In this document: piece by piece, positions 16,283-37,656 of the stretch | Numbering within the stretch: position 1 is the stretch's first letter | Layout of the letters: each line of letters starts with the position of its first letter | From: a virus | Virus record (IMG/VR): IMGVR_UViG_3300045988_127492 | Location: 64,001-128,000 of that record | DNA: 64,000 nucleotides | Reading direction: 5' to 3' (one strand) | Notes under the pieces: generated by a model | Told to the model about the DNA's origin: nothing | Databases searched by the model: none | What the model saw: the letters and a program-made list of their open reading frames with translations, nothing else | Made by a program: the position numbers and the translations under genes

Positions 16283-16283
16283 G

Positions 16284-16878: not shown

Positions 16879-17050
16879 TACAAGTTACTGTTAAACTTAC
16901 GAATCCATCATCTTGTTCAAAAGATGCCATAAGCTCATCTTTTACCAATTCTTCTACTATGTCTCTATCAGTTATTTTTACTCCAATCAATTCAGGATCA
17001 GTCAAGTTGTATTCAGCTTCTACAGTGATCACTCTTTTTGTTGGTATCAA
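16868..17050 (-). CDS. hypothetical protein; its true start is probably the ATG at 17136 (frame break in an A-run)
   Basis: The track start is a TTG without an SD. The same frame stays open 43 codons upstream to a strong SD (AAGGAGG, 7-nt spacing) and an ATG that is 1 nt out of frame (ATG AAA TAA). Confidence 0.5.
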   Translation of the reverse strand: MIPTKRVITVEAEYNLTDPELIGVKITDRDIVEELVKDELMASFEQDDGFVSLTVTCSDY

Positions 17051-17198
17051 AATTTCTTTCTCACATGCATCATCAATTGGTTTATTTAATATTCTTTTTC
17101 CTCTTTGCGTAATACCACCTCCATATTTTATTTCATTGTTTAACCTCCTTAAGTGTAGGTGAGGAATTGAACCTCACCTTAACCTTTTGTTACTACAC

Positions 17199-17282
17199 TT
17201 ATTTTCTTTTCCCTACAAAGAACCCAACTAAAAAACAGGTTAATAAGCATACCGCAAACACGCCTATATTCAACACTATCAT
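17199..17282 (-). CDS. tiny hydrophobic peptide (27 aa)
   Basis: MIVLNIGVFAVCLLTCFLVGFFVGKRK. Its ATG overlaps the PspA stop. Followed by a GC-rich 8-bp hairpin at 17157-17179. Confidence 0.3.
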   Translation of the reverse strand: MIVLNIGVFAVCLLTCFLVGFFVGKRK

Positions 17283-17283
17283 T

Positions 17284-18671: not shown

Positions 18672-18688
18672 ATTTCTTTATCTCCTTT

Positions 18689-19456
18689 TTATTTATTATT
18701 CAGCCAGTCTTTATACTGACGAAGAATCTCTGTATATAACTGTTCATCAGACATTTTATTCATGTCTTTTACTGCTGTAAAACCGGTGTTGTCATGTTTT
18801 CTACCTTTCATATTGTCAAGGGATTTTAAATAACCAAAATCTTCATCTCCAATTCCTATGAACTGCACGAAGATGTTGTACTCTGAAAGCTCTTTAATAA
18901 CTGCATTGGTGGCAAAAGTATCACTGTTTTCACCATCTGTAATAAAGATGATAAATGCTGGAATCTCACTTGGCTCAATATCTTTATAATATGTAACCAT
19001 TTCTTTCAATACAGGAGCATAATTAGTACCACCCATATACATATGAGCTTTTTTCATAACATTTTTAACATAACTACTATAATTATCAGCGTTAGCAGCT
19101 TTTAAGCGCTCTGCTCCATTTGAGAACAGCCAACTCTCAAGTTCTCCATTATCGTCAAATCTTAGAGCAATAGGCAACAAACGAGAAATGGTTTCCTGTA
19201 CAGATCCATTATCATACAGCCAATCCATACTTCCTGAATAATCCATTGCAAGAGCTACTCTAGCCGTATGTTTTGTCATATCAATCTTGCTTCCCTTAGA
19301 CATATCAATAAGTACTTTGCCAAGATTTTCATTGTGCTTAGACATATCAATTGTCTGTAACTTTTCTTCATATACAGGTTGCGGAGTTACAGCAGAAGAT
19401 AACTCTACTGCTGCTTTCTCATCTTTTTTTCCGAATAGTTTTCCCAAAAATCCCAT
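18689..19456 (-). CDS. vWA-domain protein (TerF/TerY-associated type)
   Basis: 255 aa. MIDAS motif ALAMDYSGSM and ITDGEN. Adjacent to TerD. Confidence 0.65.
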   Translation of the reverse strand: MGFLGKLFGKKDEKAAVELSSAVTPQPVYEEKLQTIDMSKHNENLGKVLIDMSKGSKIDMTKHTARVALAMDYSGSMDWLYDNGSVQETISRLLPIALRFDDNGELESWLFSNGAERLKAANADNYSSYVKNVMKKAHMYMGGTNYAPVLKEMVTYYKDIEPSEIPAFIIFITDGENSDTFATNAVIKELSEYNIFVQFIGIGDEDFGYLKSLDNMKGRKHDNTGFTAVKDMNKMSDEQLYTEILRQYKDWLNNK

Positions 19457-19457
19457 T

Positions 19458-22085
19458 TTAGTTACTTCCTTTCTTACAAATTGCTTTTCTAGTCCAATCT
19501 ACAGGCACAACCATAAATGCTGTCACTAAGACTACAATCCACTGTTTAGCATCCATTGGAGTTGTCTGTACTAGATTTCCTACAAAGTTACACAAAACTA
19601 CAGTCATTGCAAAAATACCCAATGCGATATATACAAATAATTTGTTATTTTTAATTCCTTTGAAAAGATTCATACTATCTGTTCTAATAGTGAATCCATT
19701 AAATACTGCCATTAAACACAATAAAGCGAATCTCGCTGTCATAGCCGAAAGTTTTGTTGCAAACATATTTCCAACTGGACCAAATGTAATTACACCAAAT
19801 AAAGCAATAAATACAATTGAACTTAATGCAATTCTTCCTTTCGCTCCACGGATAAATAATCCGGATCCTTTCATGATAGGCTCTTCATTCATATATTCCT
19901 CTTTTGGCGGTTCCCCACCAAAGCTTAATGAGTTAAGTGAATCCATGATGATATTTACAATAAGAATCTGAACTGCTGCTAAGAGAGCTGATCCGCCAGA
20001 AATAATTGGAAATACCATACTTAAGATCAACAATGAAATATTGATAGGTAACTGGAATTCAAGGAACATCATAATGTTATGCATAAATGTTCTACCAAGT
20101 TCGACTGCCTTTACCACACTTGCAAAATTATTGTCTGTCAAAACAATATCTGCTGCTTCTTTTGCTACATCAGATCCGTCTTGCATTCCAAAGCCTACAT
20201 CTGCTTTCTTTAGTGCAGGAGCATCGTTCACACCGTCACCTGTCATTGCTACAGACATTCCAATTTCTTGTGCTAATGTTACAAGGCGAAGCTTCGTATT
20301 CGGTGAGCATCTGGAAATTACTCTTAACTGTGGAATAATCTCTTTTACCTTTTCATCTGACATTGCCTCAAACTCATCATTGGTAACTGCTAAGTCTCCA
20401 GGCTTATAAATTCCAGCTTCCATAGCAACAGCCTTAGCAGTCTCCATGCAATCGCCAGTAATTTCAATTACCTGAATTCCAGCTTTATGAGCAATTTTTA
20501 CTGCTTCTGGAACTTCATTCCTAACCGGGTCAACAACTCCAATGACTCCAAGGAGATTCATTTCATCGGGGAGACCATCATCAGTTTTATCTGAGATAGT
20601 CAATGCAATACATCTCATTGCCTTCTCTGTTAATCCTTTAATATGGCTCTTTAAAGCTTTTCTTTTTTCTTCTGTCAGCTCAGTTACAATGCCATCATTA
20701 TCAAGATAAAATTTACACTTCTCAATTAATTTCTCTGGTGCGCCTTTATAAACAGTAAAATCATTTGCTCCATTATTTAAAGTAACTGCAGAGAATTTAT
20801 TTTCACTACTAAATGGAACACGTTTCTTCATGATAGCTTTATTCTGTATTTTTTGTGCATCTTCAGGAGAAAGCATATCAAGTACTGCTCGATCAATTGA
20901 ATTACCACCAGTGATATTTCCGTTAGAATCGAACACTGCACTATTATTCATGCAGATATTTAAATCAATTAGCTCGTTGAGCGGACTTTCCTTATTAAAA
21001 ATATCCTGACAGTTACCGTTAATCATAACTGTAGAAGTCATTTCACCTGTTGTGAGAGTTCCTGTCTTATCTGTGCAAATTAAATTAACATATGCTAATT
21101 CAGGAATTTTACCAGTATTCTTTGCAAGAATATTGAATTTTTCCATTGTTGATACATTTTGTTTAGTGACAAGTTTTACAATGAGTGGTAAGCCTTCTGG
21201 TACAGCAGCAACAATAATTGTCAATGCATTTGAGACATTCTGTGCTACTTTCTGAATACTTTCAAGAATACTTCCTGAGAAATACTGATTTAAGCTTCCA
21301 GCATTTAAGATACCTGTAATTGTCATAATTACAAATGCTAATGCTGCCGCAATTGTTCCCCATTTTGAAATAAAATCACACAAATGATCCAGAGCAATAT
21401 CAAGAGCTGTCTTAGGTGGTTCTAAAGTCTGCATTTTGACAAGAGTATCACCATTAACTGTATTAACACCAACATCTGTAACAATCATTTTTCCTTCACC
21501 AGACATAATAACTGTTCCTGCAAAGAGAGAACACTGGTCCGTATATGCAGTAGTTGATGTTGTTTTAACATGCTTATAATCAATACTAGGAATCTTTCTA
21601 CATTCTTTTGTTTCTCCATTGATAGCGGCATTATTAACAGAAATTTCCCCTTCAACAATAAAACCATCTGCAAAAATCTCTTGTCCAGTTCTCAATAGAA
21701 CTAAATCACCTACTACCAGATCATCTTTATTAATTGTCTGTATGCTTCCGTCTCGGACAACATCACAATATCTAACTGCCGTTTTTGCTCTTAGTTCTGC
21801 TGCAGATTTCTGTACACCTAGACCTGTCTTAATAGCAATTCCAGTAACAATAGCCAAAACCACTATAATCATCACAGGCTCAGAAAGAGACATTACTCCC
21901 ATAGCTCCTAAAACTAACTGGAATAAAGCAATTATTATTAGAATCATAGTAATTGGTTCAGTTAATGCTTCCTTAGCAAAATGATACCATTTTTTCAATT
22001 CAGACTCCGGAAGCTTATTACTTCCATATGTAGCCCTGCTAACCTCTACTTCGTTACTTTTTAATCCATTAAATTTCATTTTCAA
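19458..22085 (-). CDS. P-type ATPase, type II Ca2+-transporting
   Basis: 875 aa. Motifs CTDKTGTLT, PEGLP, KGAPE, DPVRNE, TGDCMETA and TGDGVNDAPALKKADVG. N-terminal cation-ATPase domain and about 10 hydrophobic segments. Confidence 0.85.
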   Translation of the reverse strand: MKMKFNGLKSNEVEVSRATYGSNKLPESELKKWYHFAKEALTEPITMILIIIALFQLVLGAMGVMSLSEPVMIIVVLAIVTGIAIKTGLGVQKSAAELRAKTAVRYCDVVRDGSIQTINKDDLVVGDLVLLRTGQEIFADGFIVEGEISVNNAAINGETKECRKIPSIDYKHVKTTSTTAYTDQCSLFAGTVIMSGEGKMIVTDVGVNTVNGDTLVKMQTLEPPKTALDIALDHLCDFISKWGTIAAALAFVIMTITGILNAGSLNQYFSGSILESIQKVAQNVSNALTIIVAAVPEGLPLIVKLVTKQNVSTMEKFNILAKNTGKIPELAYVNLICTDKTGTLTTGEMTSTVMINGNCQDIFNKESPLNELIDLNICMNNSAVFDSNGNITGGNSIDRAVLDMLSPEDAQKIQNKAIMKKRVPFSSENKFSAVTLNNGANDFTVYKGAPEKLIEKCKFYLDNDGIVTELTEEKRKALKSHIKGLTEKAMRCIALTISDKTDDGLPDEMNLLGVIGVVDPVRNEVPEAVKIAHKAGIQVIEITGDCMETAKAVAMEAGIYKPGDLAVTNDEFEAMSDEKVKEIIPQLRVISRCSPNTKLRLVTLAQEIGMSVAMTGDGVNDAPALKKADVGFGMQDGSDVAKEAADIVLTDNNFASVVKAVELGRTFMHNIMMFLEFQLPINISLLILSMVFPIISGGSALLAAVQILIVNIIMDSLNSLSFGGEPPKEEYMNEEPIMKGSGLFIRGAKGRIALSSIVFIALFGVITFGPVGNMFATKLSAMTARFALLCLMAVFNGFTIRTDSMNLFKGIKNNKLFVYIALGIFAMTVVLCNFVGNLVQTTPMDAKQWIVVLVTAFMVVPVDWTRKAICKKGSN

Positions 22086-23116
22086 ATTTCTCCTAAAATA
22101 ATTCTTTCATTGACAGATGCCACAAACGCTTCTATGGATTTATAATCTGGTTTATCTGGTAACGCAGTATTTTCCGCATCATATTTAAGTCTTTTCTCTA
22201 ACTCATCTATCATTTCAAAAAACTCTGGAATAGGCTGATAATTTTCATCCAAATATTTTCCATTGCGTAAATCCATAAGAAGTTCATGATCATCTTCTCT
22301 ATATGTAATAATTTTTCCTTTCTCAAGAATGTCAAAACACATAAGATACAGTCTCACTAAATGACACATATGCTTTCCCAACTTATTGTGATCTATAGCA
22401 TGTTTGTTTCTCTTCCCAATTTTAGAATAGTCTTTAACAATACTTTTCATTTCAGCCCACATTCCTTGATAATCATTCAAAGGATAGTGCTTTAGGTGAA
22501 TATCCATAAACACTTCTGTTTCATAGTCTTCCTGAACACCTTTATCTACATAAAGCTTTATTGCATCTTCTGGAAAATTGAAATACTTTTCAGGGAAAGT
22601 ATAAAAAGCATTCATAATACTATTAAGAACATGCTGCATTCTTTCTTCTTGTCCCAATTTCCTGGCAGCTTTATTATCGAGCCTTCTTAGCTGACTTGTA
22701 GCATAGCCTCCAAAAGAATAGATCGCTTTCTTAGATAAAAACATTTCAGCATTATCAAGAAGTTCTTGACCAATTGGATGAATATAAAGATAATGTTCTG
22801 GCTTCAATCCTATCAGCTCAATTGTGTTTGGGTTGCAGTTTGACAATAGAGTTATCAATTTATTAAAAGAATAGATTGTTGTATCTGTTGTTTCTTCCGT
22901 TACCTGATCAAAATTATGTGTAGGAATCAGGATTTCTTCTCTTTTATTTAAAGCACAACCCCTAATATCCAGATCGGAGTTTTCTGTATCTGTACCATAA
23001 GCATGAGACCCACCTAAGCCTAATAGAATTATGTTACTCCCCAGGTGCTCGTTCGCTCTTAAGAAATCATAGTGTTCACTTTTCAACAATTTTTTGATTT
23101 TCTCTATTTTCATCAA
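22082..23116 (-). CDS. Pol-beta-fold nucleotidyltransferase, RlaP-like
   Basis: 344 aa. LGLGGSHAYGTDTENSDLDIRG (GS...SDxD) nucleotidyltransferase signature. Confidence 0.55.
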   Translation of the reverse strand: MMKIEKIKKLLKSEHYDFLRANEHLGSNIILLGLGGSHAYGTDTENSDLDIRGCALNKREEILIPTHNFDQVTEETTDTTIYSFNKLITLLSNCNPNTIELIGLKPEHYLYIHPIGQELLDNAEMFLSKKAIYSFGGYATSQLRRLDNKAARKLGQEERMQHVLNSIMNAFYTFPEKYFNFPEDAIKLYVDKGVQEDYETEVFMDIHLKHYPLNDYQGMWAEMKSIVKDYSKIGKRNKHAIDHNKLGKHMCHLVRLYLMCFDILEKGKIITYREDDHELLMDLRNGKYLDENYQPIPEFFEMIDELEKRLKYDAENTALPDKPDYKSIEAFVASVNERIILGEI

Positions 23117-23603: not shown

Positions 23604-23987
23604 TCAGATAATCTGTAAGTTTTCGTCACCAATAAGCCATGCAGAATCTAAAATAAAATTTTCATATGGATCACCATTGTCGTTCCAGAATTCATCTGAT
23701 CCAACTTCCCAATCACCCAATGTTCCAGCATTAAAGTTACCGTATAAATAATCTGCCACATATTCTAAAAACGCATCTACAGCCTTATCATAATCTTCTT
23801 TTCTTATTGACTCTTCTACATCTGGCTCAAGATCAATCCATTTATGCTGCTCAATCAAAAAAGATTTAGCATTGTCTCTTACTTTCAACAGTGAGTTTTT
23901 AATGTCTGTCAATGTTGCATCTTTCTTTTTTGCAATGATGTAACTTGAAGATGAGCTATTAGTAACAAACCCTCTTCTTATTTTCAT
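23604..23987 (-). CDS. MKIRxGFVTNSSSSSF-family protein (copy 2)
   Basis: 127 aa. N-terminus MKIRRGFVTNSSSSSYIIAKKK is shared with four other ORFs; the remainder is unrelated and acidic. Confidence 0.6.
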   Translation of the reverse strand: MKIRRGFVTNSSSSSYIIAKKKDATLTDIKNSLLKVRDNAKSFLIEQHKWIDLEPDVEESIRKEDYDKAVDAFLEYVADYLYGNFNAGTLGDWEVGSDEFWNDNGDPYENFILDSAWLIGDENLQII

Positions 23988-24383
23988 TATCCATCTCTCC
24001 CTTCTCCTTCAGCAACTTCTATATCAGCAAATCCATTTTCTTCCGTAATGGCATCAATCGCTTCATTCATAGAAAAATTATAATTATAATTAACATCACC
24101 CCACTCATCTTCATAGGCCTCATTGCTATCCATAATTACAATATATTCTCCATCAGGATGCTTTTCTAAAATGTCATCAACTCCATAAATTGTTGCTCCG
24201 CACCAGCTAGCCCCGAGACCACCACACCAATCTTTTTCATCATTTACGCCGGCAACATCTAATACATTAAGATTAAATTGATCAATTATCTTCTGAACTT
24301 TTTTCTTTGTCAGCGATTCTTGCAAAACAGATAATGAAACTGCTAGAGCTTGAATTAGTGACAAATCCTTTCCGTATTTTCAT
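23987..24383 (-). CDS. MKIRxGFVTNSSSSSF-family protein (copy 1), frame-disrupted at an A-run
   Basis: The ATG at 24383 (SD GGGAGG) encodes MKIRKGFVTNSSSSSFIICFARIADKEK... and stops at 24282. The 125-aa track ORF (TTG start at 24364) is the +1 frame of the same gene. The two frames join across GAAAAAAG. Confidence 0.5.
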
Positions 24384-24394
24384 GGTCCTCCCTT

Positions 24395-24583
24395 CTAGTG
24401 GCTTTCGCCACTAGATTTCTTATTCCAATTTGGTTTGTTAGTTTTCATTTTATTTACATGTTTAGAAAACGCTAGGGACTTCTTAGATGGCTTTAATCCA
24501 TGCTTAGTCATTCTGGTGTGTTCTTTTCCGTTTTTATCTACTCTCGTTGTATACTCTTTGTTCCAAGAATTCTTTGATTTCAT
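24395..24583 (-). CDS. small highly basic protein
   Basis: 62 aa, Lys/Asn/Ser-rich. Confidence 0.45.
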   Translation of the reverse strand: MKSKNSWNKEYTTRVDKNGKEHTRMTKHGLKPSKKSLAFSKHVNKMKTNKPNWNKKSSGESH

Positions 24584-24584
24584 A

Positions 24585-25730
24585 TTACATATCCTCCATT
24601 GAATAAATTACTCTCTCTAAGCTTCTTTTGGATTTAAAGCATTTCTTAAGTAAACACCACATAATTGCCTTTTCAACATCGTCTTCATCTTCCCAATCAT
24701 TTAAGACTACAGAAGTTTGAGTTCCATCTTTAAAGCCAACAGTTGTTCTAATCTTTTCTGTAGAAATATCTCTTGTTCTTCCTACAAATGCAATATCGTC
24801 TTTCGATAAGGTTTTACAAACGTGTTTATCAGTTTTGTTTTTAGGTACAATATATACATCAATACCCAAAGCATCTTTAATCTGACGTTCGCAACTTCTA
24901 AGCTCCTCTCCAATAGTATGTTCTTTTTCTTTTTTCGCTACTACTTTTTCAAGTGCTTTTAAGATTTCATCTGGTGACATGTTCATATCTGTTTTCTCCT
25001 CTTTATAATCAAAATATGGCATTGGTTTCAGTTTAAACTCATTCTTCTCATGTAAACGATCAATTCGTCTTTTTACTTCTGGATCGTCACATACTCCTGT
25101 ACGAATATATCTATCTAATACTGCATAGGTGAATCCAAAGTTATCTTCATCTGACTTGCCGCATAAACCATCTGCTGGCGTTTTCTCTACATATTTTTTA
25201 GGCAATCTTAAATAATGACCAATTGCTACAACTTCCTTTTTTACAAAAGGAGCTAATGGAGCTAAATCTCCTGCTCCGTCACCATCACGAGTAAAATATC
25301 CAATATATATTTCACTAAGATTTCCAGTATTGACTACTCTTCCATTATGAGACTGTGCTACCCCGCGTAAAACAGCCATTCTTAATCTTGGAGCAAGATT
25401 AATCAGGGTCTGATCTGATACATCCAGTGCAAGATCAATCTGATCAATGATATCATCATAAGCATATCCAATATTAATAGTAAGATAATCAATACCTAAT
25501 ACGTGCTGGCAGATATCATACGCCACATCTATATCATCCTGTTTGTAATTTGGCATAATTACTCCGAGGACTTTGCTTGGTCCGACAGCTTCCACACATA
25601 ACTTAGCAGCTACTAAAGAGTCAACACCGCCGGAAATACCTACTATAAAGTTACATTCTGGGCCATTTTTCTCTCTCCAATCTCTGATCCACTGAATGCA
25701 ATCATTTGTTGCTTTTTCTACATTAAACAT
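24585..25730 (-). CDS. nadE: NH3-dependent NAD+ synthetase with an extra C-terminal domain of about 140 aa
   Basis: 381 aa. PP-loop GISGGVDS plus a NadE-like core ending near residue 240; the rest has no recognisable motif. Confidence 0.75.
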   Translation of the reverse strand: MFNVEKATNDCIQWIRDWREKNGPECNFIVGISGGVDSLVAAKLCVEAVGPSKVLGVIMPNYKQDDIDVAYDICQHVLGIDYLTINIGYAYDDIIDQIDLALDVSDQTLINLAPRLRMAVLRGVAQSHNGRVVNTGNLSEIYIGYFTRDGDGAGDLAPLAPFVKKEVVAIGHYLRLPKKYVEKTPADGLCGKSDEDNFGFTYAVLDRYIRTGVCDDPEVKRRIDRLHEKNEFKLKPMPYFDYKEEKTDMNMSPDEILKALEKVVAKKEKEHTIGEELRSCERQIKDALGIDVYIVPKNKTDKHVCKTLSKDDIAFVGRTRDISTEKIRTTVGFKDGTQTSVVLNDWEDEDDVEKAIMWCLLKKCFKSKRSLERVIYSMEDM

Positions 25731-26223
25731 TCTGTTCCTCCAATTTCCATAATTCTACTTCAAAGTTACACAATTCTTCTTCTATAATTTTGTAAATCAC
25801 ATCCCAATCTGCGCCTCCTCTTCCGCAGCCTATTTTATATGGGAGTGCAATGCTTGTCTTGTGAGGCCTATTATCAACATCAAACCAATAAATAGGTATC
25901 TGTTGCCGAATGAAATTTAATCCCTCTCGAAAAGCTTTAAGATCTGTATATTGCTTACCATCATATCCATACTTGTCTTGTGCAAATAAAGACAATATTA
26001 CTTGATTTTTCCATCTGATAAAGTACTCGTCATATGTTCCAAGAAGTAATTCTGGATTAAACTCACGTAATTTACAGACGTTTCTATAATGTATATAAAT
26101 ACTTTCGTCATAATCTCTTAATGCTTTAGCAACACCAGTATTCATTTCTCCTTGGCAGTTAACTTGATGAATTATATAATCGGTCTTTGCATCTACAATG
26201 TTGCCTTCAATAATTCTAATCAT
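25723..26223 (-). CDS. macrodomain protein (ADP-ribose binding/hydrolase)
   Basis: 166 aa. IIEGNIVDAKTDYIIHQVNCQGEMNTGVAKAL and GCGRGGADW blocks. Overlaps the nadE start by 8 nt. Confidence 0.7.
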   Translation of the reverse strand: MIRIIEGNIVDAKTDYIIHQVNCQGEMNTGVAKALRDYDESIYIHYRNVCKLREFNPELLLGTYDEYFIRWKNQVILSLFAQDKYGYDGKQYTDLKAFREGLNFIRQQIPIYWFDVDNRPHKTSIALPYKIGCGRGGADWDVIYKIIEEELCNFEVELWKLEEQNV

Positions 26224-26764
26224 TTTTTACCTCTTTATAATTTGCATCTCCTACGTCATACATACTAAAATGGAAATCCATATAATCTTTATCATCTATA
26301 TCTTCTTTGTCAAAGAAATCTTCAATCTGCTTTCCATCTGCAATTACAATATAGAGATTTCCATCTTTGCTTATGTACGTTTTTTGAGCTTCGTTTGTAT
26401 AATCACTATCACCTGTCCAATCTGTATAATACTCATAAGATTCTACCGGTTCGTCAGGATGATATTCGTCTTCTAGTTCAAACTTAATTTTTGTAATGTC
26501 ATTATACATAGACAATGTATCAAATATCATTTCTGAAAAACCTTCTGGTACCGCAAAACAACCAAACTGATTTCTCTTTTTATTTGCATCTTTATGAATT
26601 TCAATGGCAATAATGTTAGCTGACACCATTTTACAAATAGCGTTACATGCTATTCTTCTTACAGAAGTGTCTATATCCTCTACTATAAAATCTCCTATGT
26701 ATTTACCATCAATGGTCACATAATCACAATTTTCTAAAATGAAGGTAATTGATTTTAGTCTCAT
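26216..26764 (-). CDS. hypothetical protein
   Basis: Start moved to MRLKSITF at 26764 (SD AGGAGA). The longer track start overlaps the upstream gene. Confidence 0.5.
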   Translation of the reverse strand: MRLKSITFILENCDYVTIDGKYIGDFIVEDIDTSVRRIACNAICKMVSANIIAIEIHKDANKKRNQFGCFAVPEGFSEMIFDTLSMYNDITKIKFELEDEYHPDEPVESYEYYTDWTGDSDYTNEAQKTYISKDGNLYIVIADGKQIEDFFDKEDIDDKDYMDFHFSMYDVGDANYKEVKND

Positions 26765-26772
26765 TTTTTCTC

Positions 26773-27186
26773 CTATAAATCCTGGAACGTAAACTTCTCG
26801 CCACAAGAGCAAATCACTTCTCCAATAGTTCCAATTGATGTAGGTGTGAAGCACCATGTAAGAGATCCACCTATGCAGCCATGTCCCATTGCTCTCTGTT
26901 TAGAAGTTTTAAGTCCATGTTTTTCTGCATCATGTTTCAACTGCCACTCTCTAATTTTCTTTTCTTCCTTTTCAGAAATTGGGAATCCTCTGTACAGATC
27001 TTCTTTTGCTTTTTTCAATTCAGCTTCCATTCTCTGCATTTCAGAATCTTTATAATGCTCATCTTTGAGATTTTTATTTTCTTCACTCAGATACTTAATT
27101 CGTCTTTCATAAGAATCTGCCTTATCAATAATTCCCTGACAAAGTTCTGAAACCGAATCAGTAAAATATGTTTTTCTCATTTTCAT
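26773..27186 (-). CDS. hypothetical coiled-coil protein with Cys/His-rich C-terminus
   Basis: 137 aa. Confidence 0.5.
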   Translation of the reverse strand: MKMRKTYFTDSVSELCQGIIDKADSYERRIKYLSEENKNLKDEHYKDSEMQRMEAELKKAKEDLYRGFPISEKEEKKIREWQLKHDAEKHGLKTSKQRAMGHGCIGGSLTWCFTPTSIGTIGEVICSCGEKFTFQDL

Positions 27187-27187
27187 C

Positions 27188-28654
27188 TTAATGTTCTCCG
27201 TTTAATCTGTTTCTGATTTTTTCAAAACACTCATCATCATATGTTCCCCCATTAATGAACACTGTCCTTAATGCATCATCATATACAAGACTGTCATATC
27301 CATCTGCACACTGTAGTTCTCCATTTTCATCATAATAGATATAACAACATCCTTTATGAGATTTCTTTAAATGACTTGTATCAGTCTTCGGATCCTTATA
27401 AATCATGACTGGTTGTCCATTAACTTCTCCGAACGTAGCTTTCATAGCAATTCCAAACATATCTCTAGTTACAACGACCATACGTCCATCAGGTTCTACG
27501 ACCGCTGAAAAACAAAAAGCTCCCACACCAAAAACAATATTGTTCGCGGCGAATCCTTTCTTCTCAAGTTCCTCCCATACCTGCCTTACATTATTAAGAG
27601 TACAGCCATCTCCATAGATAATTCCAATATGAGGGTCCAGTACTTTATATCCTTTGCTATTCACTGATCCTTCAAATGTGTTCCAGAGTTTTTCAATTGT
27701 CTTTACTGAAATTTCTACCATATTTCCACTGTCCGGACGAACCAGAAGCTTACCGTTATGCTGCATAATTTCTTCTTTACAAGCTGGAAGAATGTTGTCA
27801 ATCATATTCCAGTAATCATATGTATCAGATACCATACTGAATGATGCATTAGGATAAAGCTCTGTAAGCAGTCTCTTCACAAATGTAATTTCATCTCCGT
27901 CTACGGCGAAGTTTGAAGCCATAACTGAGTGTTCTGTTGAGATTGCTCCAATTCCAATACCTTCTGTATAACAATCAGCATCGTAATATTTGTCCAAATA
28001 ATCAATTGCTGGGATTGTGCTGGTTTTATCGAATGATAATAACCATGCGGCAGAACATCTTTTAGCTTCTTCAATACAGGACATTCCTCTCATTCCAAAG
28101 TCAGAGCAAGCTAAATTGGGTTTTAAAGAGTCATCACAAGTCTTTTTGTAATAGAAATTAGCCAACTCTCTGTACATATGTCCGATTGTCGCATGAGCAC
28201 ATGGCTTCCAGAGTTCTACCTGCAGGATACATTCAATCCACTGTACAACCCATGCAAAGTCTGGATGTGTATTTGTGATCTCGATACACGGTACCCCCAT
28301 CGGAACCAGTGTTCCCTCCGGTAATGCGCGGATTTGAATTGGAAGATATCCTAATTCGTGGAGTTTAAGGATTGGAGAAATATCGTAATTTCTTTCCCCT
28401 AACTGGATATCCATACTATATGTATAGAGTTCCTGAATTTCGTCAGTATTCAACTTGAAAAAATCCCTTTTGAAATATTTAACAAGATACTCTTTAATAA
28501 AAGCCTGCAGTCCGAAGAAAACCATATGATCTTGCTCCTTTAACATTGATCTTCTCGGAGTCCAATAAGAGACTAACTTCGTAAGTCCCTTCGGATAGAT
28601 TTTATTATGGATTTGCTTATAAGTGTCACTTAATAAAATTGCAAGTGTATTCAT
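27188..28654 (-). CDS. NAMPT-family phosphoribosyltransferase (NadV-like; candidate Namat of NARP1)
   Basis: 488 aa. N-terminal LSDTYKQIH, YWTPR, and length and overall pattern of the nicotinamide phosphoribosyltransferase family. Confidence 0.75.
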   Translation of the reverse strand: MNTLAILLSDTYKQIHNKIYPKGLTKLVSYWTPRRSMLKEQDHMVFFGLQAFIKEYLVKYFKRDFFKLNTDEIQELYTYSMDIQLGERNYDISPILKLHELGYLPIQIRALPEGTLVPMGVPCIEITNTHPDFAWVVQWIECILQVELWKPCAHATIGHMYRELANFYYKKTCDDSLKPNLACSDFGMRGMSCIEEAKRCSAAWLLSFDKTSTIPAIDYLDKYYDADCYTEGIGIGAISTEHSVMASNFAVDGDEITFVKRLLTELYPNASFSMVSDTYDYWNMIDNILPACKEEIMQHNGKLLVRPDSGNMVEISVKTIEKLWNTFEGSVNSKGYKVLDPHIGIIYGDGCTLNNVRQVWEELEKKGFAANNIVFGVGAFCFSAVVEPDGRMVVVTRDMFGIAMKATFGEVNGQPVMIYKDPKTDTSHLKKSHKGCCYIYYDENGELQCADGYDSLVYDDALRTVFINGGTYDDECFEKIRNRLNGEH

Positions 28655-29043
28655 TATTTTTTATTCTCCTCTTTGTTGTTTACAACTTTATCAATCTGGT
28701 CAGTAATGTAATCAATAACATCCTTGCCGGTTTTCCCAACTGCTTGAATGTTATCTGTCGTTACATTATCTAATACAATCATTGTATACATTGTATCTTT
28801 CGATGGAGTTACTGCAAAAAGTAAACTACTAACGCAAAGCCAGATAACTGATTTCTTTAAATACTTTTTACATGCAACAACAGGTTCCTCATCCTGTTCA
28901 TAATCCATAGAACTAAGAAACCAAATAATTGATAATACCACCGCTGCACATCCAAGTAAAAATAATACAACACTAAATAATCCCTTTAAATCATCAAATA
29001 AATCAATTAAATAAATCAACCATGGGTTAATAATCGGTTTCAT
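28654..29043 (-). CDS. membrane protein (2 TM)
   Basis: 129 aa. Overlapping start/stop with neighbours. Confidence 0.5.
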   Translation of the reverse strand: MKPIINPWLIYLIDLFDDLKGLFSVVLFLLGCAAVVLSIIWFLSSMDYEQDEEPVVACKKYLKKSVIWLCVSSLLFAVTPSKDTMYTMIVLDNVTTDNIQAVGKTGKDVIDYITDQIDKVVNNKEENKK

Positions 29044-29056
29044 ATTTTTATCTCCT

Positions 29057-29446
29057 TTATAACTTTCCTATCAAACAGCTCCAAGTAAAACCAATCTGAA
29101 ACATATGAGTTATTTGATCTTGAATTAAATTAATTTTCTTTTTATTGGCTTTCATATCATCTACTAACATATGTATCAATAAATTCATAACCAATAATAA
29201 AGGATTCCATTTACCACCAATAATCATAAGCGCAATTGTTGGTGGTAACATAATCATAAATGACCAACTAAAGCTATGCATAAACAATGCTGCTAAATAA
29301 TCATATTTATATAATTTTCCTGGTGCATTCTTTTCCCACCATGATTTTTGCTTTGCAGATGCTAACCATCCTTGCAAGTAATAATCATCTACAATATGAC
29401 AGAAAATCATAGTAAATAAGATAAATATTTTATATGCAATATTCAT
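29057..29446 (-). CDS. DUF3307-like integral membrane protein
   Basis: 129 aa. CHIVDDYYLQ (HxxxDxxxQ) and a second HMLVDD motif. Confidence 0.4.
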   Translation of the reverse strand: MNIAYKIFILFTMIFCHIVDDYYLQGWLASAKQKSWWEKNAPGKLYKYDYLAALFMHSFSWSFMIMLPPTIALMIIGGKWNPLLLVMNLLIHMLVDDMKANKKKINLIQDQITHMFQIGFTWSCLIGKL

Positions 29447-30249
29447 TATCTAAACCTCTCAATCAGTTCAATCTTAGGACTTTCAAGATTTGTCAAAATC
29501 GTATCTGTCGTATAAATCTTCTCAATCAGTCCATTATTCTTCAGAAGCTCTCCATCATAAATAGTGTTTTCACAATGAGTAACATAGAGATAAATCTTAC
29601 CTACACCGGCCTCCTTTAGCTTTTTAGCACTATGATAAAAAGTACCGCCTCTGCTACAGATATCATCTACTATAAGGATATCTTTACCTGGGAGTTGATT
29701 AATTTCACCTGATAGATCAAGACCTTTGATTTCTCCTGTCTCCCAGTCTCTATTCTTAATACCAAACGCATATGGAAGATGTACCATGGAAGAATATCTC
29801 TTCATAGATCCTGCGTCTGGATAAAACATCATGAGATTATCACTCGCAATCTTCTTGACAGTAGCTTCAATCATTCGATTCGGTGACTCTACATGCACTT
29901 TATTAAATAACGCAACAGATACATCAGAGTGAGGATCTAAAACTTCTACCTTATTAAAATGCAATGAATTAATAATCTGAGCAAAATATTTTAAAGTAAA
30001 TAATTCGTTCTCATGCTTAACTCGATCCATACGAGCATCTGGGATATAAGGCATGTATAAACTAGGTACTACTCTATGGTCCCAACAATATCTAGCTATA
30101 TATTCAACTGCTGTTAACTCTTCCATTGATTCAAAGAACCATTCAATATTATCTCTACTCCATCCACCGATGGGTGGGAGATTCTTAAATAAGAATGTCC
30201 CATCCGGATATTTATCAAGTTTGATTTCTACACCGTTTAATTTAATCAT
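29446..30249 (-). CDS. short ribose-phosphate pyrophosphokinase-like enzyme (candidate Adps of NARP1)
   Basis: 267 aa. PRTase loop DILIVDDICSRGGTF and an N-terminal Prs-like half. Shorter than housekeeping Prs. Confidence 0.65.
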   Translation of the reverse strand: MIKLNGVEIKLDKYPDGTFLFKNLPPIGGWSRDNIEWFFESMEELTAVEYIARYCWDHRVVPSLYMPYIPDARMDRVKHENELFTLKYFAQIINSLHFNKVEVLDPHSDVSVALFNKVHVESPNRMIEATVKKIASDNLMMFYPDAGSMKRYSSMVHLPYAFGIKNRDWETGEIKGLDLSGEINQLPGKDILIVDDICSRGGTFYHSAKKLKEAGVGKIYLYVTHCENTIYDGELLKNNGLIEKIYTTDTILTNLESPKIELIERFR

Positions 30250-30604
30250 TCCAAATCTCCTTGTAATTTATTTCTCGCTGCTCAATGATGTTATTTCTTG
30301 TGAAAACAATCTCAAAATCTGAAATCTGTTTCGTTCCAACAAGCTGAAATTCATAAACTTTATATCCAAGTTTCTTCAGTTCAAGAACATCAGTAAGGCT
30401 GAACCAGTGTTTTAATGTTTCCTTTGATGGTGCTGCTGAGAACCACTGTTTCCCACCTTCTCTGTATAATTCACTATCTTCCATTGGCAGGTTTCTACTT
30501 AATCCTTCTGAGAGCTGGTCGAATACAGGATTCCATGTTCCATCAAAATTCCGCCACAGTCCATGTTTCTCAATTTGGTCTTCTACTCTATATCCGAAAA
30601 TCAT
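30242..30604 (-). CDS. hypothetical protein coupled to the Prs-like gene
   Basis: 120 aa; 8-nt overlap with the downstream gene. Confidence 0.5.
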   Translation of the reverse strand: MIFGYRVEDQIEKHGLWRNFDGTWNPVFDQLSEGLSRNLPMEDSELYREGGKQWFSAAPSKETLKHWFSLTDVLELKKLGYKVYEFQLVGTKQISDFEIVFTRNNIIEQREINYKEIWND

Positions 30605-30622
30605 TTCTTTTCTCCTATCACA

Positions 30623-31318
30623 CTAATCTGACAACTTTTCATTGTATTTTTCTTTTAGTTTTTCATAAGCGAGATGTGCTTCATATTCTGTTTCATATCT
30701 TCCACCATATATATTTTTACTATTGTGAACATATGTGACCTGCCATTTTCCATCTTTTAGTCTTGTTACACCTACATATCTTGATGTTGTTGTTAATTTT
30801 CTCCTGCCAAGCATTTCATCGAAATTAATTCTATTTGGTAAAAACATGCATGTCTCTATTGAGTATATTTTATTATTACTTCCAATATATGACATATCTT
30901 TATCTAATTGAATTTCTCCTTTTAAAAATTTTTGTTCATTATACCCTTTTATATTAGGGATATCTTTATAGAAATATTCAAAACACAACCATCTGTCGCA
31001 TACCCGTATTCCCTTCTCCCCGTACAATTTATATCCCTTATGATTTTTGTTGTAACATCTTTCAATCATAAATTTCCATAAATTAAATTCTTTCTTATGA
31101 TTGGATTTTTTTATATCGCCTTGACAGGCAACGCCATAATAAATAGGATAGTAAGGATCTCTTATTTCTCCATATATAACGCAAGATGCACATATATCTT
31201 TTTCATAATTAGTTAATAAAAATCTCACTCTATATTTCTGAGAATTATATCTTTTTATAATCTCATAATCTCCATATTTATTGGATTTTCTTATATCTCC
31301 AACTTTAATTTTACTCAT
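30623..31318 (-). CDS. AP2-domain DNA-binding protein, probable free-standing homing-endonuclease-like gene
   Basis: 231 aa. C-terminal RYVGVTRLKDGKWQVTY...YETEYEAHLAY (AP2 fold pattern) and WKFMIERCYN...YGEKGIRVCDRW block. Confidence 0.4.
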   Translation of the reverse strand: MSKIKVGDIRKSNKYGDYEIIKRYNSQKYRVRFLLTNYEKDICASCVIYGEIRDPYYPIYYGVACQGDIKKSNHKKEFNLWKFMIERCYNKNHKGYKLYGEKGIRVCDRWLCFEYFYKDIPNIKGYNEQKFLKGEIQLDKDMSYIGSNNKIYSIETCMFLPNRINFDEMLGRRKLTTTSRYVGVTRLKDGKWQVTYVHNSKNIYGGRYETEYEAHLAYEKLKEKYNEKLSD

Positions 31319-31877
31319 TTATGGCCTCAATCTGAAGTGATTTTAAAATTAACACCGTATTTTTATACATTTCTGTAGTAGTTGCAGCAGTACATTTTAA
31401 ATCAATAAATATATTTGCTTCTGGAAAAGCTGTTTTTAATAATACCAAATTAGTAATAACACATACATCCAAGCACAAACCACAAAGCTCTATGAAATAT
31501 TCGCCCTGAATTTCCTTATTTTCCGTTATAAATGGCTTTAAATATTCAATGAGTTCAAGAGATCCGAATGTATGTTTTAATATAGGTTTGTAATAACTGT
31601 ATCCTCTTAAACAATTGTAAATACTATCTTCAATTTGCCAACCATCTGAACTAACAATACAGTGCTTTATAGGTAATTTTTTACCTTCATTTGTCTCTAA
31701 GTAATCAGCATAATGAGTATCTTGTGTAGATATAATAATGCCATTATTTGATTTATACTCTTCAATTTTTTTCACTATATTTGGTACAACTGCCTGAGCT
31801 TCCGGTGTACCTAGCGAACCTGTCACAAAATCATTCTGCACATCAACTACAATCAGAACTTTCTTTTTACTTTCCAC
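31311..31877 (-). CDS. pncA: isochorismatase-family hydrolase, nicotinamidase-like
   Basis: 188 aa. VLIVVDVQNDF, KH and LCGLCLDVCV (catalytic D/K/C arrangement). Confidence 0.6.
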   Translation of the reverse strand: MESKKKVLIVVDVQNDFVTGSLGTPEAQAVVPNIVKKIEEYKSNNGIIISTQDTHYADYLETNEGKKLPIKHCIVSSDGWQIEDSIYNCLRGYSYYKPILKHTFGSLELIEYLKPFITENKEIQGEYFIELCGLCLDVCVITNLVLLKTAFPEANIFIDLKCTAATTTEMYKNTVLILKSLQIEAINE

Positions 31878-32490
31878 AAATATTACCTCCGATAATCATT
31901 TTCCCAAATGGATACTCGACAATTCCATAGCTGCATAGGACTTCCATTTCTTTAGTTGGATCATTTCCACACACCTCTAACAATGCCTCAACTTCTTCTA
32001 CTTTTCTATTGATTTGAGCTCTATCATCTTCATTATCCTTTAACAACTTATCTCTCATCTTTTTGCTATTTTCAGTCGCTTTATCAAACACATTAGGCAT
32101 CTCAACTTTATAGCCTTCATCCGTAAGTCGTTTCATACAAGCAATTAACTCATGTGTATTAGTATCTGAATTAAGTATCTCTAAAAGTTTTTCATTCATT
32201 TCCTTTTCGATTTTCTCAAGTGACCTTTTCTTCCAAAGTTTTACAACTGATGTGGAATTACTCACTGTTTTCACTTCCTTCTTTTCTGTCTGTAAAATAT
32301 TTGCTAAATTATCTTCTTTTAAATAAAAGTACCCAAAATTGGATTTTTCATTGTATTTTCCAGGTACCTCCACTGCAACGAGGCCGGTATCACATATGCC
32401 TTTAACAGTTCCATTAAAATGTAATAAATTACAAGATTGATACTTTTTAGGAACCGATATTATAAAGACTTTATTTCCTACATTAAACAT
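31867..32490 (-). CDS. hypothetical protein
   Basis: Start moved to MFNVGNK at 32490 (SD AGGAG). The longer track start would run into tRNA-Leu. Confidence 0.5.
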   Translation of the reverse strand: MFNVGNKVFIISVPKKYQSCNLLHFNGTVKGICDTGLVAVEVPGKYNEKSNFGYFYLKEDNLANILQTEKKEVKTVSNSTSVVKLWKKRSLEKIEKEMNEKLLEILNSDTNTHELIACMKRLTDEGYKVEMPNVFDKATENSKKMRDKLLKDNEDDRAQINRKVEEVEALLEVCGNDPTKEMEVLCSYGIVEYPFGKMIIGGNICGK

Positions 32491-32514
32491 TTTTAACTCC
32501 TTTCTATTTATTAA

Positions 32515-32596
32515 TCCACCCAGAGAGACTCGAACTCTCACGCCGTTAAGCATTAGAACCTAAATCTAACGTGTCTACCAGTTCCACCATGAGTGG
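32515..32596 (-). tRNA. tRNA-Leu (anticodon UAG), class II with long variable arm
   Basis: Hand-folded: acceptor CCACTCA/TGGGTGG, D arm GTGG-AACTGGTAGA-CAC, anticodon stem TTAGA/TCTAA with loop TTTAGGT, variable arm TGCTTAACGGCGT, T arm GAGAG-TTCGAGT-CTCTC. No encoded CCA. Confidence 0.85.
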
Positions 32597-32733
32597 GTAC
32601 AACTGGCAGGTAAACTGCCAATTGTTAATAATGAGAGCTACGATTATTTACTTATTCACTACTTACCAGCCTTGTACAAACTAAGAGCCAAGTATAATCA
32701 TGCTCATAAACTTTTACCAAGGATTTGATAAAT

Positions 32734-32827
32734 CTTTATTCTTTATGCTTTATTCTTTAATCTTTAAATTGGGATAAACTTTGAATTTTGAATTTTAAGA
32801 TTTGATATTTGAGCTTTGAACTTTACA
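32734..32827. repeat. Two blocks of tandem heptamers: 5 x CTTTAWD (32734-32768) and 7 x NTTTGAN (32779-32827)
   Basis: Read directly: CTTTATT CTTTATG CTTTATT CTTTAAT CTTTAAA, then CTTTGAA TTTTGAA TTTTAAG ATTTGAT ATTTGAG CTTTGAA CTTTACA. Lies in a 417-nt ORF-free spacer. Confidence 0.8.
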
Positions 32828-33013
32828 GCACTATGGCTATCTGCCTCATCTAATAATGTAAATATTAGACATACCAGTCTAATCCTTTTTGTATTTTATA
32901 CCATTTGCTGTATAAGTAATGCTGCAGTTTCTTTATTGTTTTATATATGTCTAACCCAGCTAAAAAGACATATAGATTATAGTTTAAAGTTTTCGATAAG
33001 CAGTGAATATATC

Positions 33014-33652
33014 TTAGTATGTAATTTCGATTTCTGTCAGAGAATTACTTACTGAAAGTGCCGCATCTACTTCAGCAGTGAACTCTGCAATTTCTGTTTC
33101 CAAATCCTCCATTTCTTTAAGAACACCAATTGGATCAACAAGTTCCATTGTCTGAGCTTCTATATAAGCTTCTCTAGTTTTTGTAAACTCTTCAGTAGAG
33201 GTTTTACCTTCTTTACTGCCATAGAGCCCTACAACATAATTTTCAGCTTTATCTTCCAATTTACCATTCTCAGTTATGATCTGAGCCATAGCAGCATCAT
33301 ACTGTTTTTTAATTTTCTGTTTTAAAAGTTTCTTGAAGTCCATTCCATGATTTTTCATTTCAATAGCTTCAGCTACTGTATACTCTTTATCGGCAACAGT
33401 GACTTTAGTTACTGCATTTGAAAGAACTACAGCTCTTTTAATAGCTTCTCTTCTCTTGATTAAATCAGTTGCTTTATCATAAGAAGATTTCATAACTCCT
33501 GTGTAAACTTTGATATCTACACCTTTGACTTTTGTGTTAGAATGCTTATTTGAAATACAAGCTTCTACACTGTTAATCGCTTTAATAATGCGATCATCTA
33601 AGATTTTCAGTTCTGCTAATGCCTTATGGACATTCATTTTTTCTGTTGTCAT
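33014..33652 (-). CDS. hypothetical helical protein embedded in the tRNA island
   Basis: 212 aa. Good SD (AGGAGG). Confidence 0.55.
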   Translation of the reverse strand: MTTEKMNVHKALAELKILDDRIIKAINSVEACISNKHSNTKVKGVDIKVYTGVMKSSYDKATDLIKRREAIKRAVVLSNAVTKVTVADKEYTVAEAIEMKNHGMDFKKLLKQKIKKQYDAAMAQIITENGKLEDKAENYVVGLYGSKEGKTSTEEFTKTREAYIEAQTMELVDPIGVLKEMEDLETEIAEFTAEVDAALSVSNSLTEIEITY

Positions 33653-35944: not shown

Positions 35945-35976
35945 AGTTTTACAAAATGGTTTATATGTTAAAAATT
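35945..35976 (-). promoter_or_regulatory. Copy b of the conserved intergenic motif
   Basis: Sense AATTTTTAACATATAAACCATTTTGTAAAACT, ending 20 nt before the ATG of the AAA+ gene. Confidence 0.5.
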
Positions 35977-36880
35977 AGTGACCATTGACATCTGCTTCAT
36001 GTAATAACATTACATCTGAAAACATTTTGTCTCCGATCAATCGTTTATCTTTATTTCTTGCTCTTCTTGATTGAGCCCATGATAAATATGGATGCATATG
36101 ATAATAAATCAAATTAGCTATATAAAAGATATCAAACATATCTTTCCCCGTAGTTACATCAGAGAAATCGCAAGATGTCAAAAATTCATATGCTCCAACA
36201 CAATGATGCTGATAATAGTGACAGTAATCATCCTCTTCTCCTTTTTTATTGATTCTTGATTTAGTAAATAATTTTCCTATATCATGAACCCAAGCTGCAA
36301 CCCATAAATTAGAGTCTTCTGTTGGAACTCCTGCTGAAACCTTTTTCAGATGTCCGTAAAGAGTCAAGGTATGATGTGGATTTTCCTGATCAAAATCACG
36401 AGTCATATCTATTAAATCATTCAAATCTTTACAGTCATCCTGTACAACTCTGATTTCATTGAATCCTTCATGGCACATAGGCGGAGAAAACGTTTTTCTC
36501 ATTCTAGTAATTACTTCGTCAGGCACTGGAATTTCTCTTTTTAAATTATCTTCCAAACACTTTTCATATGTTTTTAAGAATACAACACAGGTTTTATAAA
36601 CTTGTTTACTAACCTGCTTTAAAAAATGCACTCTCCTTTTCTTTACTAAGTTAGTAGCATCATAGATAACTGAATGAGTTTTCAGATCTTCCAGTATCCT
36701 TCGATGTAACTCTTCAAATACTTTATTATTATCTGAATCATCAAAATTATCTCCGTACATTTCTCTTCTGAGTTTATCAGATGAATGTAGTATATACTCC
36801 GGATTAGCTTCTACATAGGCCTTAGCCCAAGTACTCTTACCAGAAGCAGGAAGTCCTACTAACATAATCAATTCATTCAT
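35975..36880 (-). CDS. P-loop polynucleotide-kinase-like domain fused to an HD phosphohydrolase
   Basis: 301 aa. GLPASGKST Walker A with a kinase-type N-half; C-half has WVHDIGK...HH...H of HD domains. Confidence 0.6.
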   Translation of the reverse strand: MNELIMLVGLPASGKSTWAKAYVEANPEYILHSSDKLRREMYGDNFDDSDNNKVFEELHRRILEDLKTHSVIYDATNLVKKRRVHFLKQVSKQVYKTCVVFLKTYEKCLEDNLKREIPVPDEVITRMRKTFSPPMCHEGFNEIRVVQDDCKDLNDLIDMTRDFDQENPHHTLTLYGHLKKVSAGVPTEDSNLWVAAWVHDIGKLFTKSRINKKGEEDDYCHYYQHHCVGAYEFLTSCDFSDVTTGKDMFDIFYIANLIYYHMHPYLSWAQSRRARNKDKRLIGDKMFSDVMLLHEADVNGH

Positions 36881-37627: not shown

Positions 37628-37656
37628 AGTATATCACAGTCATTTCATCTTGTCAA
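37628..37656 (-). promoter_or_regulatory. sigma70-type promoter P2 (TTGACA-17 nt-TATACT)
   Basis: -35 at 37651-37656 and -10 at 37628-37633. Motif copy d (37660-37680) is immediately upstream, overlapping the last codons of ligA. Confidence 0.6.

Follow-up and report, generated by a model that had tools for sequence, protein, structure and literature searches.

The window considered here is a stretch of 64,000 nucleotides, positions 64,001 to 128,000 of the IMG/VR virus record IMGVR_UViG_3300045988_127492, and this work is centred on an island of genes related to nicotinamide adenine dinucleotide (NAD+) and ADP-ribose (ADPR) at positions 24585-31877 of the window. The source is taken to be a phage of gut Clostridia with a genome of roughly 150-165 kb. 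The island contains a nicotinamidase-like gene (PncA), homologues of the phage enzymes Adps and Namat, a macrodomain gene and a gene for an NH3-dependent NAD synthetase (NadE) with a C-terminal tail. It has no annotated near relative, since a megablast comparison with the GenBank phages gave one 380-bp match only. Related loci were obtained by scanning IMG/VR with a PncA profile, which gave at least 526 relatives; the best 80 loci, together with their 10-kb flanks, were searched with the window proteins, and the counts given out of 80 refer to them. The open reading frames (ORFs) of the island, read along the minus strand, are the following:

31311-31877, minus strand: PncA-like nicotinamidase, 188 residues (Pfam Isochorismatase, E 7.5e-14)
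30623-31318, minus strand: HNH/AP2-like ORF of homing-endonuclease type, 231 residues (PHROG 2081 HNH endonuclease, E 3e-41; 5 of 80 loci)
30242-30604, minus strand: ORF of 120 residues (phrog_23161, E 2e-14; without Pfam match; 6 of 80 loci)
29446-30249, minus strand: Adps-like homologue of phosphoribosyl pyrophosphate (PRPP) synthetase, 267 residues (phrog_619, E 2e-69)
29057-29446, minus strand: small membrane ORF, 129 residues (Pfam DUF3307, E 5e-5; 14 of 80 loci)
28654-29043, minus strand: small membrane ORF, 129 residues (hydrophobic segments in the translation; 20 of 80 loci)
27188-28654, minus strand: Namat-like NAMPT homologue, 488 residues (best match SPbetaL1 Namat, 9W5W/9W5X)
26773-27186, minus strand: ORF of 137 residues with a coiled-coil-like N-terminal part and a Cys-rich end (without family match; 21 of 80 loci)
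26216-26857, minus strand: ORF of 213 residues (phrog_2349, E 5e-20 from residue 32; without PDB sequence match; 17 of 80 loci)
25723-26223, minus strand: predicted Adpp-family macrodomain, 166 residues (phrog_335 'phosphatase', E 1e-35)
25011-25730, minus strand: NadE core, residues 1-240, NH3-dependent NAD synthetase (TIGR00552, 161 bits)
24585-25004, minus strand: fused C-terminal module of NadE, residues 243-381 (long helix, linker and a three-strand two-helix core, ~296-381)

The whole nadE ORF covers 24585-25730 and encodes 381 residues. A preliminary description of this DNA, made from the sequence alone, had placed nadE, the macrodomain gene and the isochorismatase-family gene in this region; the reading frames and family matches agree with it, and all three genes are on the minus strand. 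The 8-nt overlap that it reported between the macrodomain stop and the nadE start is likewise present, the TAA (25725-25723) and the nadE ATG (25730) both lying inside ATGTTTAA, and GGAGG stands just upstream of the nadE start. Between 19 and 36 kb of the window every gene is on the minus strand, and the co-directional ORFs of the island fit one transcription unit, short of proof. Related to this, the scan of the window gave no minus-strand terminator-like site within 23900-33100, and the promoter and terminator scans of the window were indistinguishable from those of shuffled sequence. The start of the HNH/AP2-like ORF overlaps the PncA stop by 8 nt; this ORF is probably a mobile insertion between PncA and Adps, because it is found in so few of the related loci. 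The true start of the 213-residue ORF is probably Met32.

Judged by homology, the two genes that the preliminary description had called a NAMPT/Prs pair are the NARP1 system, composed of Namat and Adps (bioRxiv 10.1101/2024.02.11.579819). The Namat-like protein matches PDB entries 9W5W and 9W5X with 386 bits (E 2e-114), against ~195 bits (E ~1e-56) for human NAMPT, and these entries are the Namat of phage SPbetaL1 according to the paper of their depositors. The motifs SDFGMRG and TEHSVM are retained. The Adps-like protein scores 92 bits with TIGR01251, under the cut-off of 113, and when used as a tblastn query it matches Prs-like genes in 1511 phage records. Pseudomonas phage PaP1 is among them, and this phage is listed with NARP1 and a macrodomain gene in Table S1 of Osterman et al. 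(bioRxiv 10.64898/2026.01.28.702374). Both genes, Adps at 29446-30249 and Namat at 27188-28654, are on the same strand, and two small ORFs separate them.

The macrodomain can be related to the same literature. Osterman et al. (bioRxiv 10.64898/2026.01.28.702374) reported that 15% of the phages with NARP1 carry an operon-associated gene for a Poa1p-like macrodomain, and that one of these proteins, Adpp of Vibrio phage Gary, converts ADPR-1''-phosphate to ADPR and is needed to beat the aRES defence; the resulting pathway was named NARP1-AP. The window macrodomain matches the Gary Adpp by BLASTP with E 3e-8 and aligns over its full length, with 26-34% identity, with six NARP1-associated macro proteins of their Table S1. 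It shares with them His19, Asn22, Gly30, Gln82, Pro128, Gly132, Gly137 and Trp140, and the common motifs are HQxNC, a conserved Gln and P...GCGxxGxxW. On this similarity the protein is predicted to be an ADPR-1''-phosphate phosphatase of the Adpp family. The operational definition given in the same work (bioRxiv 10.64898/2026.01.28.702374) places Adpp at most two genes from NARP1 and asks for PF14519, PF01661 or PF20016 by HHpred; the window gene is the third after Namat and matches PF01661 only with E 0.24 by hmmscan. Relatives such as L005 and L038 have the macro gene directly after Namat.

Another role of this protein has to be weighed, namely that of a DarG- or TARG1-like enzyme removing ADP-ribose from DNA, RNA or protein (and so opposing DarT), or of a processor of Appr>p/Appr-1''p in RNA repair, in either case outside NARP1. 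The best NCBIfam match of the macrodomain is in fact antitoxin_DarG (E 6e-13), its best PDB sequence matches are the DarG macrodomains 5M31 and 5M3I, the window also encodes genes of RNA-repair type (RNA ligase, RlaP, AAA_33 kinase) and a NADAR protein, and macro homologues such as that of Bacillus phage Kirov, for which the gene surroundings rule out a NARP1 island context, sit away from NARP1. However, the DarG score of 48.7 bits is far under the cut-off of 250, and the protein is a 166-residue single domain that lacks the DarT-binding C-terminal domain attached in DarG-type antitoxins; the macro gene lies within the NARP1 island in 54 of the 80 loci, and the full-length similarity and the motifs tie it to the NARP1-associated family. 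Because the DarG score is below the cut-off, even though the PDB matches are DarG proteins, this role is considered a minor rival and very improbable. The phosphatase role also fits with four loci in which a HAD-type protein of 139-143 residues (DxDxT motif: FCVDFDDTIYDF, VAFDFDDTVFNT) stands between Namat and NadE, in the slot of the macrodomain elsewhere:

L001, 339-770: HAD-type protein
L004 (Phage Phass-1), 7784-8203: HAD-type protein
L076: HAD-type protein
L078: HAD-type protein

This HAD-type protein may be a non-homologous replacement of the macrodomain as ADPR-1''-phosphate phosphatase.

The 188-residue protein of isochorismatase fold would be a nicotinamidase by every sequence criterion that could be applied, save the equivalog cut-off of NCBIfam. 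Its best solved relative is the nicotinamidase of P. horikoshii (PhPncA; 1ILW/1IM5), with E 1.2e-8 by phmmer and E 8e-18 over the full length with a three-sequence profile; the next structures are yeast Pnc1 and M. tuberculosis PncA. The catalytic triad Asp12, Lys101 and Cys139 is invariant in three phage homologues and aligned to the PhPncA positions. The same holds for the metal site, formed by Asp53 and His55 (QDTH) and His72 (KHC), which align to DWH and RHC of 1ILW; this Asp-His-His site is the feature that separates nicotinamidases from other hydrolases of isochorismatase fold. The match to the equivalog PRK11609 reaches 28 bits against a cut-off of 174 and covers the N-terminal 56 residues only, so the protein is seen as a divergent member.

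The assignment of the NadE core is supported by the PP-loop GISGGVDS, by the Pfam NAD_synthase match over residues 10-235 (E 3e-46) and by TIGR00552, whose cut-off is 63.65 bits. The core retains every residue that is almost invariant when 48 sequences, including cellular NadE, are aligned, its AlphaFold pLDDT (predicted local distance difference test) is above 90 over most of its length, and the fold matches to NadE structures reach E 1e-20. Chromosomal NadE proteins from Clostridia, Oscillospiraceae and Lachnospiraceae share 56-60% identity with it.

A survey of co-occurrence in related phages, as the preliminary description had proposed, revealed that the five genes recur together. Within 10 kb of PncA, Adps was found in 66 of the 80 loci, NadE in 62, Namat in 61 and macro in 54. 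The complete set of five occurs in 50 loci, where the genes share one strand without exception and span 3.7-10.5 kb; several loci with fewer genes are truncated by the end of their contig. The order is PncA-Adps-Namat-macro-NadE in 34 loci and Adps-Namat-macro-NadE-PncA in 16. When PncA is clustered at 90% identity, 19 of 28 clusters hold all five genes, and 10 of 18 do so at 70%; the genes thus stay together despite rearrangement, down to 38-59% protein identity. Two GenBank records found by tblastn have the set as well: macro, NadE and PncA are directly adjacent in MT835544.1, and Phage Phass-1 has a compact block PncA-Adps-Namat-(HAD-like)-NadE with overlapping or abutting ORFs. In one locus (L038) Adps and Namat are separated by an RtcB RNA ligase (11393-12598), and NadE is followed by an ATP-dependent DNA ligase (15516-16790). 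Among cultured phages a PncA-like gene is very unusual (9 of 50,697 records); in gut phages such genes are almost always beside NARP1.

PncA and NadE are therefore conserved members of the island and not strays. The part formed by Adps, Namat and the macrodomain is already known as NARP1-AP and explains half of the island; what is new is that PncA and NadE are repeatedly added to it. Related to this, no report linking PncA or NadE to NARP genes was found in the literature searched, which included the NARP1 preprint and a 2022 survey of viral NAD+/ADPr systems and whose coverage is incomplete.

The Preiss-Handler route begins with PncA and ends with NadE. The preliminary description had pointed out a gap between them, as it saw neither nicotinate phosphoribosyltransferase (NaPRT, PncB) nor NadD, and this gap is borne out. 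A motif scan, the only search made for NadD, covered all frames of the window and of 85 related loci and did not find the NadD/NMNAT-type motif GxFxPxHxGH. There is no second NAPRTase-like gene in the window, where the other ORFs were not searched with a PncB profile, and the related loci gave no second Namat-like match of the NAPRTase superfamily at more than 2.5 kb from the first.

The reading preferred here, with a probability of about 0.55, is that PncA and NadE bracket the PncB/NadD route of the host and provide a second branch, independent of ADPR, beside the NARP1-AP branch. In the first branch, which is modelled on homologous enzymes that have been tested, the macrodomain would strip the 1''-phosphate from ADPR-1''-phosphate made by NAD+ phosphorylases of RES type, Adps would pyrophosphorylate ADPR to ADPR-PP, and Namat would join ADPR-PP and nicotinamide to yield NAD+. 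In the second branch, the phage PncA would deamidate the nicotinamide for which there is no usable ADPR, PncB and NadD of the host would convert the nicotinate to nicotinic acid adenine dinucleotide (NaAD), and the phage NadE would amidate NaAD to NAD+. The preliminary description had offered three ways out of the gap. The action on molecules generated by defence is supported by homology for Adps, Namat and the macrodomain, as NARP1-AP acts on ADPR, ADPR-1''-phosphate and nicotinamide. The filling of the gaps by host enzymes is the best remaining reading of PncA and NadE. The use of nicotinate by the NAMPT-like enzyme is disfavoured, as explained below. The phage has also a direct reason to protect the NAD+ pool, because it encodes an NAD-dependent DNA ligase (LigA, with adenylation, OB and BRCT domains; window 37653-39689) that makes its replication consume NAD+.

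This last way out corresponds to a closed, deamidated version of NARP1, in which PncA would give nicotinate, Namat would join it to ADPR-PP to form NaAD and NadE would produce NAD+, the five genes being self-sufficient. It is attractive because Adps and Namat would replace exactly the two missing enzymes, PncB and NadD, to which the genes present are complementary. The tight and repeated linkage of the five genes in two orders, and the overlapping or abutting block of Phass-1, speak in its favour. Against it stands the acidic residue that reads the amide of nicotinamide in NAMPT, Asp219 of the human enzyme; its mutation to Ser reportedly lets NAMPT use nicotinate. The window protein retains the equivalent acidic residue (within SDFGMRG), as do 58 of 63 scored homologues among the related Namat proteins and the nicotinamide-bound Namat of SPbetaL1, and for this reason the two-branch model is preferred over the closed route. 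The five other homologues have Ala at this position (GAFDFRG), a point in favour of the closed route. This route would moreover cost one extra ATP per NAD+ without evident gain, and no report of nicotinate use by Namat was found in the literature searched. On balance it is held to be unlikely, but its interest is high: if true, it would be a fourth route of NAD+ reconstitution, and it would let the phage exploit the nicotinate pool dominant in gut hosts with PncA, or keep the dinucleotide in a state that the NADases of defence systems may be unable to cut.

A further alternative, considered about as improbable as the closed route, is that PncA and NadE are ordinary auxiliary metabolic genes that raise NAD+ from environmental niacin or nicotinamide for replication, with no specific counter-defence role; their place beside NARP1 would then only reflect that NAD-related accessory genes collect in a single early and variable region. 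Many unrelated phages have NadE but no NARP1 (cyanophages, pelagiphage HTVC008M, Bacillus phage G), eight related loci have PncA and NadE without detectable Adps or Namat, the closeness of phage NadE to host NadE suggests simple capture, and both LigA and the natural deletion variants without most of the island (P0051, P0017 and P0135, described below) are consistent with it. On the other hand, the persistence of the five genes through rearrangement to such low identities is beyond what passive clustering would lead one to expect, and the rarity of PncA in cultured phages against its near-constant vicinity to NARP1 in gut phages points in the same direction.

Several points weigh against the two-branch model itself. 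All the enzyme functions of the island rest on homology, and the presence of PncB and NadD in the host is an assumption based on what is generally known of Clostridia. Since PncA and Namat compete for nicotinamide, the model has to assume in addition that the two are kept apart in time or by their kinetics. A boost of the host route would not obviously require tight linkage to Adps and Namat together with the consistent absence of PncB and NadD. The DarG-like best matches of the macrodomain belong here too, and so does the fact that, among solved NadE structures, the nicotinamide mononucleotide (NMN) synthetase of Francisella (3FIU) comes nearest in both fold and identity, because of which nicotinic acid mononucleotide (NaMN) rather than NaAD could be the NadE substrate. 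Finally, the specificity of Namat for ADPR-PP is only predicted. The selectivity clamp of this enzyme consists of aromatic residues stacking on adenine, Phe392 and Tyr396 in SPbetaL1, and a clamp-loop residue (PMC12774641). In the alignment a Phe pairs with a Phe in the stretch presumed to contain Phe392 and Tyr396, and a 10-residue insertion of the window protein, SAVVEPDGRM, aligned to the clamp helix of SPbetaL1, follows, so that the alignment gives no clear partner for the second aromatic residue of the clamp.

The NadE tail is of smaller interest, as a clean example of an orphan phage domain found both split and fused. The extension of ~140 residues noticed in the preliminary description is borne out: the residues beyond the Pfam match have no family match. 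The possibility raised there that it might be common in host NadE is answered by the cellular proteins of Clostridia, Oscillospiraceae and Lachnospiraceae, which have 244-252 residues and end where the phage core ends; the tail is thus not a feature of host NadE. In L001, nadE encodes 251 residues (258 from an upstream TTG) and is followed, after a 58-nt spacer, by a separate gene of 136 residues (P0014), which is 54% identical to the window tail, has its own Shine-Dalgarno sequence and starts at the position aligned with Met246/248 of the window NadE. As the tail is a separate adjacent gene in that locus, it is read as a small downstream gene fused to nadE; it is a lineage-specific fusion of a neighbouring gene and not a new catalytic domain, and it would not be needed for NadE chemistry. 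At the junction, where 'KEE' is conserved in most fused homologues, a Shine-Dalgarno-like sequence, AAAGAGGAG (window 24986-25006, minus strand), stands 8 nt before the ATG of Met246, and the tail may also be translated alone from this retained signal.

The fused form was found in ~30 protein clusters with 57-100% identity, on contigs of up to 165 kb, and one cluster member is deposited under Ruminococcus sp. AM46-18; another (P0060) has NadE with only the last ~75 residues, the core, of the tail. Searches for the tail elsewhere gave little. Pfam and PHROG gave no match even with the E threshold raised to 10. Only 16 close relatives came out of 5.8 billion proteins in a word-indexed search and only 11 matches out of 1.84 billion representative proteins in a profile search, and a scan of the GTDB genomes gave nothing. 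Structure prediction gives a helix (253-288), a weak linker and the three-strand two-helix unit, which reaches pLDDT 89-95 when folded alone (AlphaFold). A Foldseek search of the PDB with this core had no significant match (best E 0.29), and in BFVD it matched only uncharacterised gut 'Siphoviridae sp.' proteins, at 2.0-2.5 Å over parts. The motif T-x5-DGT-x-T-x-V ... D-x-EK ... C ... K is invariant in near and distant homologues.

It could be thought that the tail is functionally coupled to NadE, through regulation, oligomerisation, targeting or as a tethered inhibitor that binds a defence protein. A gene split and adjacent in one locus and fused elsewhere is the classic Rosetta-stone pattern, the fusion persists over the whole range of identities and P0060 retains NadE together with the 75-residue core, and the core is very strongly conserved, 56 of 139 columns being invariant. 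Nevertheless, only 10 of the 62 NadE-bearing related loci have the tail, distant homologues of its core sit in unrelated architectures without NadE, the Shine-Dalgarno sequence and ATG at the junction suggest that separate production is possible, and the linker has low model confidence and gives no docking information. Coupling is therefore held to be doubtful, although less so than the rival readings of the enzymes. Since most NadE of the module lack the tail and distant homologues of the core occur without NadE, the fusion is judged, with good though not full confidence, to be incidental or at most accessory, and the function of the tail is probably independent of NadE.

Natural in-frame deletion variants from metagenome relatives (P0051, P0017, P0135 and P0007) have lost most of the island and kept the tail; in them the 3' part of nadE continues the PncA N-terminus, the Namat body, the upstream gene of 228 residues or the NadE N-terminus. 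P0051 represents 27 sequences, on contigs of up to 59.8 kb. These variants indicate that the island is dispensable and recombination-prone. Another locus (L002) was considered as a relative that keeps the tail without the island, and was discarded as a likely chimeric assembly, because the N-terminal 60 residues of its protein P0012 resemble bacterial aconitase, the junction shows a DIT(F/Y)VG microhomology and the coverage is 2.7x.

Other genes of the window are also related to ADPR or to stress. A NADAR-domain protein of 148 residues (16432-16878; Pfam E 6e-30) is a second ADPR-processing gene, ~8 kb from the island. The block 14897-23116 encodes Band_7/SPFH, PspA-like, TerD and vWA-TerF-like proteins, a P-type cation ATPase of 875 residues and a nucleotidyltransferase of RlaP type. 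An RNA ligase (PF09414) and an AAA_33 kinase-like protein are located at 11186-12481 and 35975-36880; taken with RlaP, they point to a set of RNA-repair genes in this phage. Two paralogous families of small ORFs were also observed (23604-23987, 48646-49428, 50286-50759 and 50741-51025; also 55487-56600 and 59330-60586), one with the N-terminal sequence 'GFVTNSSSSS(F/Y)' and the other formed by tandem ORFs of ~95 residues starting with 'K(V/I)GD..(V/R)'.

Among the known systems, the NMN synthetase of Francisella tularensis (NadE*, 3FIU) resembles the phage NadE in its short single-domain form, with a TM-score of 0.90 on the target and 33% identity. The phage protein is, however, much closer to the housekeeping NadE of Clostridia, and the 140-residue tail is absent from 3FIU. 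The island has in common with the Preiss-Handler pathway (PncA-PncB-NadD-NadE) its first enzyme, with the D-K-C triad and the D-H-H metal site, and its last one, an NH3-dependent NadE with PP-loop; it differs in that the two middle enzymes are undetected in the window and the related loci, and in that the end enzymes are linked to Adps and Namat.

The closest system is NARP1-AP. Adps is near Namat, a macrodomain of Poa1p/Adpp type lies in the same co-directional block, the Namat is closest to the crystallised SPbetaL1 enzyme and the macrodomain aligns with the listed Adpp proteins. In contrast with NARP1-AP, the macro gene is not within two genes of Namat in the window, the genes are interspersed with two membrane ORFs, the HNH-type ORF and three uncharacterised ORFs, the Namat carries the insertion at the clamp helix, and PncA and NadE are added as conserved members.

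NAD+ depletion is a major antiviral strategy of bacteria, and the three phage pathways of NAD+ reconstitution described all use the amidated route. NARP2 consists of NadV and NadM/Nudix (Vibrio phage KVP40), and NARP3 of a PnuC-like transporter and a NadR-like enzyme (PMC13464706). By analogy with PnuC, and as pure speculation, the two membrane ORFs between Adps and Namat might serve pyridine uptake. The island shares with NARP2 and NARP3 the rebuilding of NAD+ by phage-encoded enzymes to escape NAD+-depleting defence, whereas homologues of NMN adenylyltransferase, Nudix, PnuC or NadR were not detected in it. Genes of gut phages labelled 'nicotinamidase', 'NAD synthase' and 'ribose-phosphate pyrophosphokinase' are probably parts of one counter-defence unit. 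NARP1, NARP2 and NARP3 all do without the deamidated route, of which the added enzymes are part, and this widespread gut-phage module joining the end enzymes of that route to NARP1-AP suggests either a backup branch dependent on the host or a Namat chemistry that extends to nicotinate.

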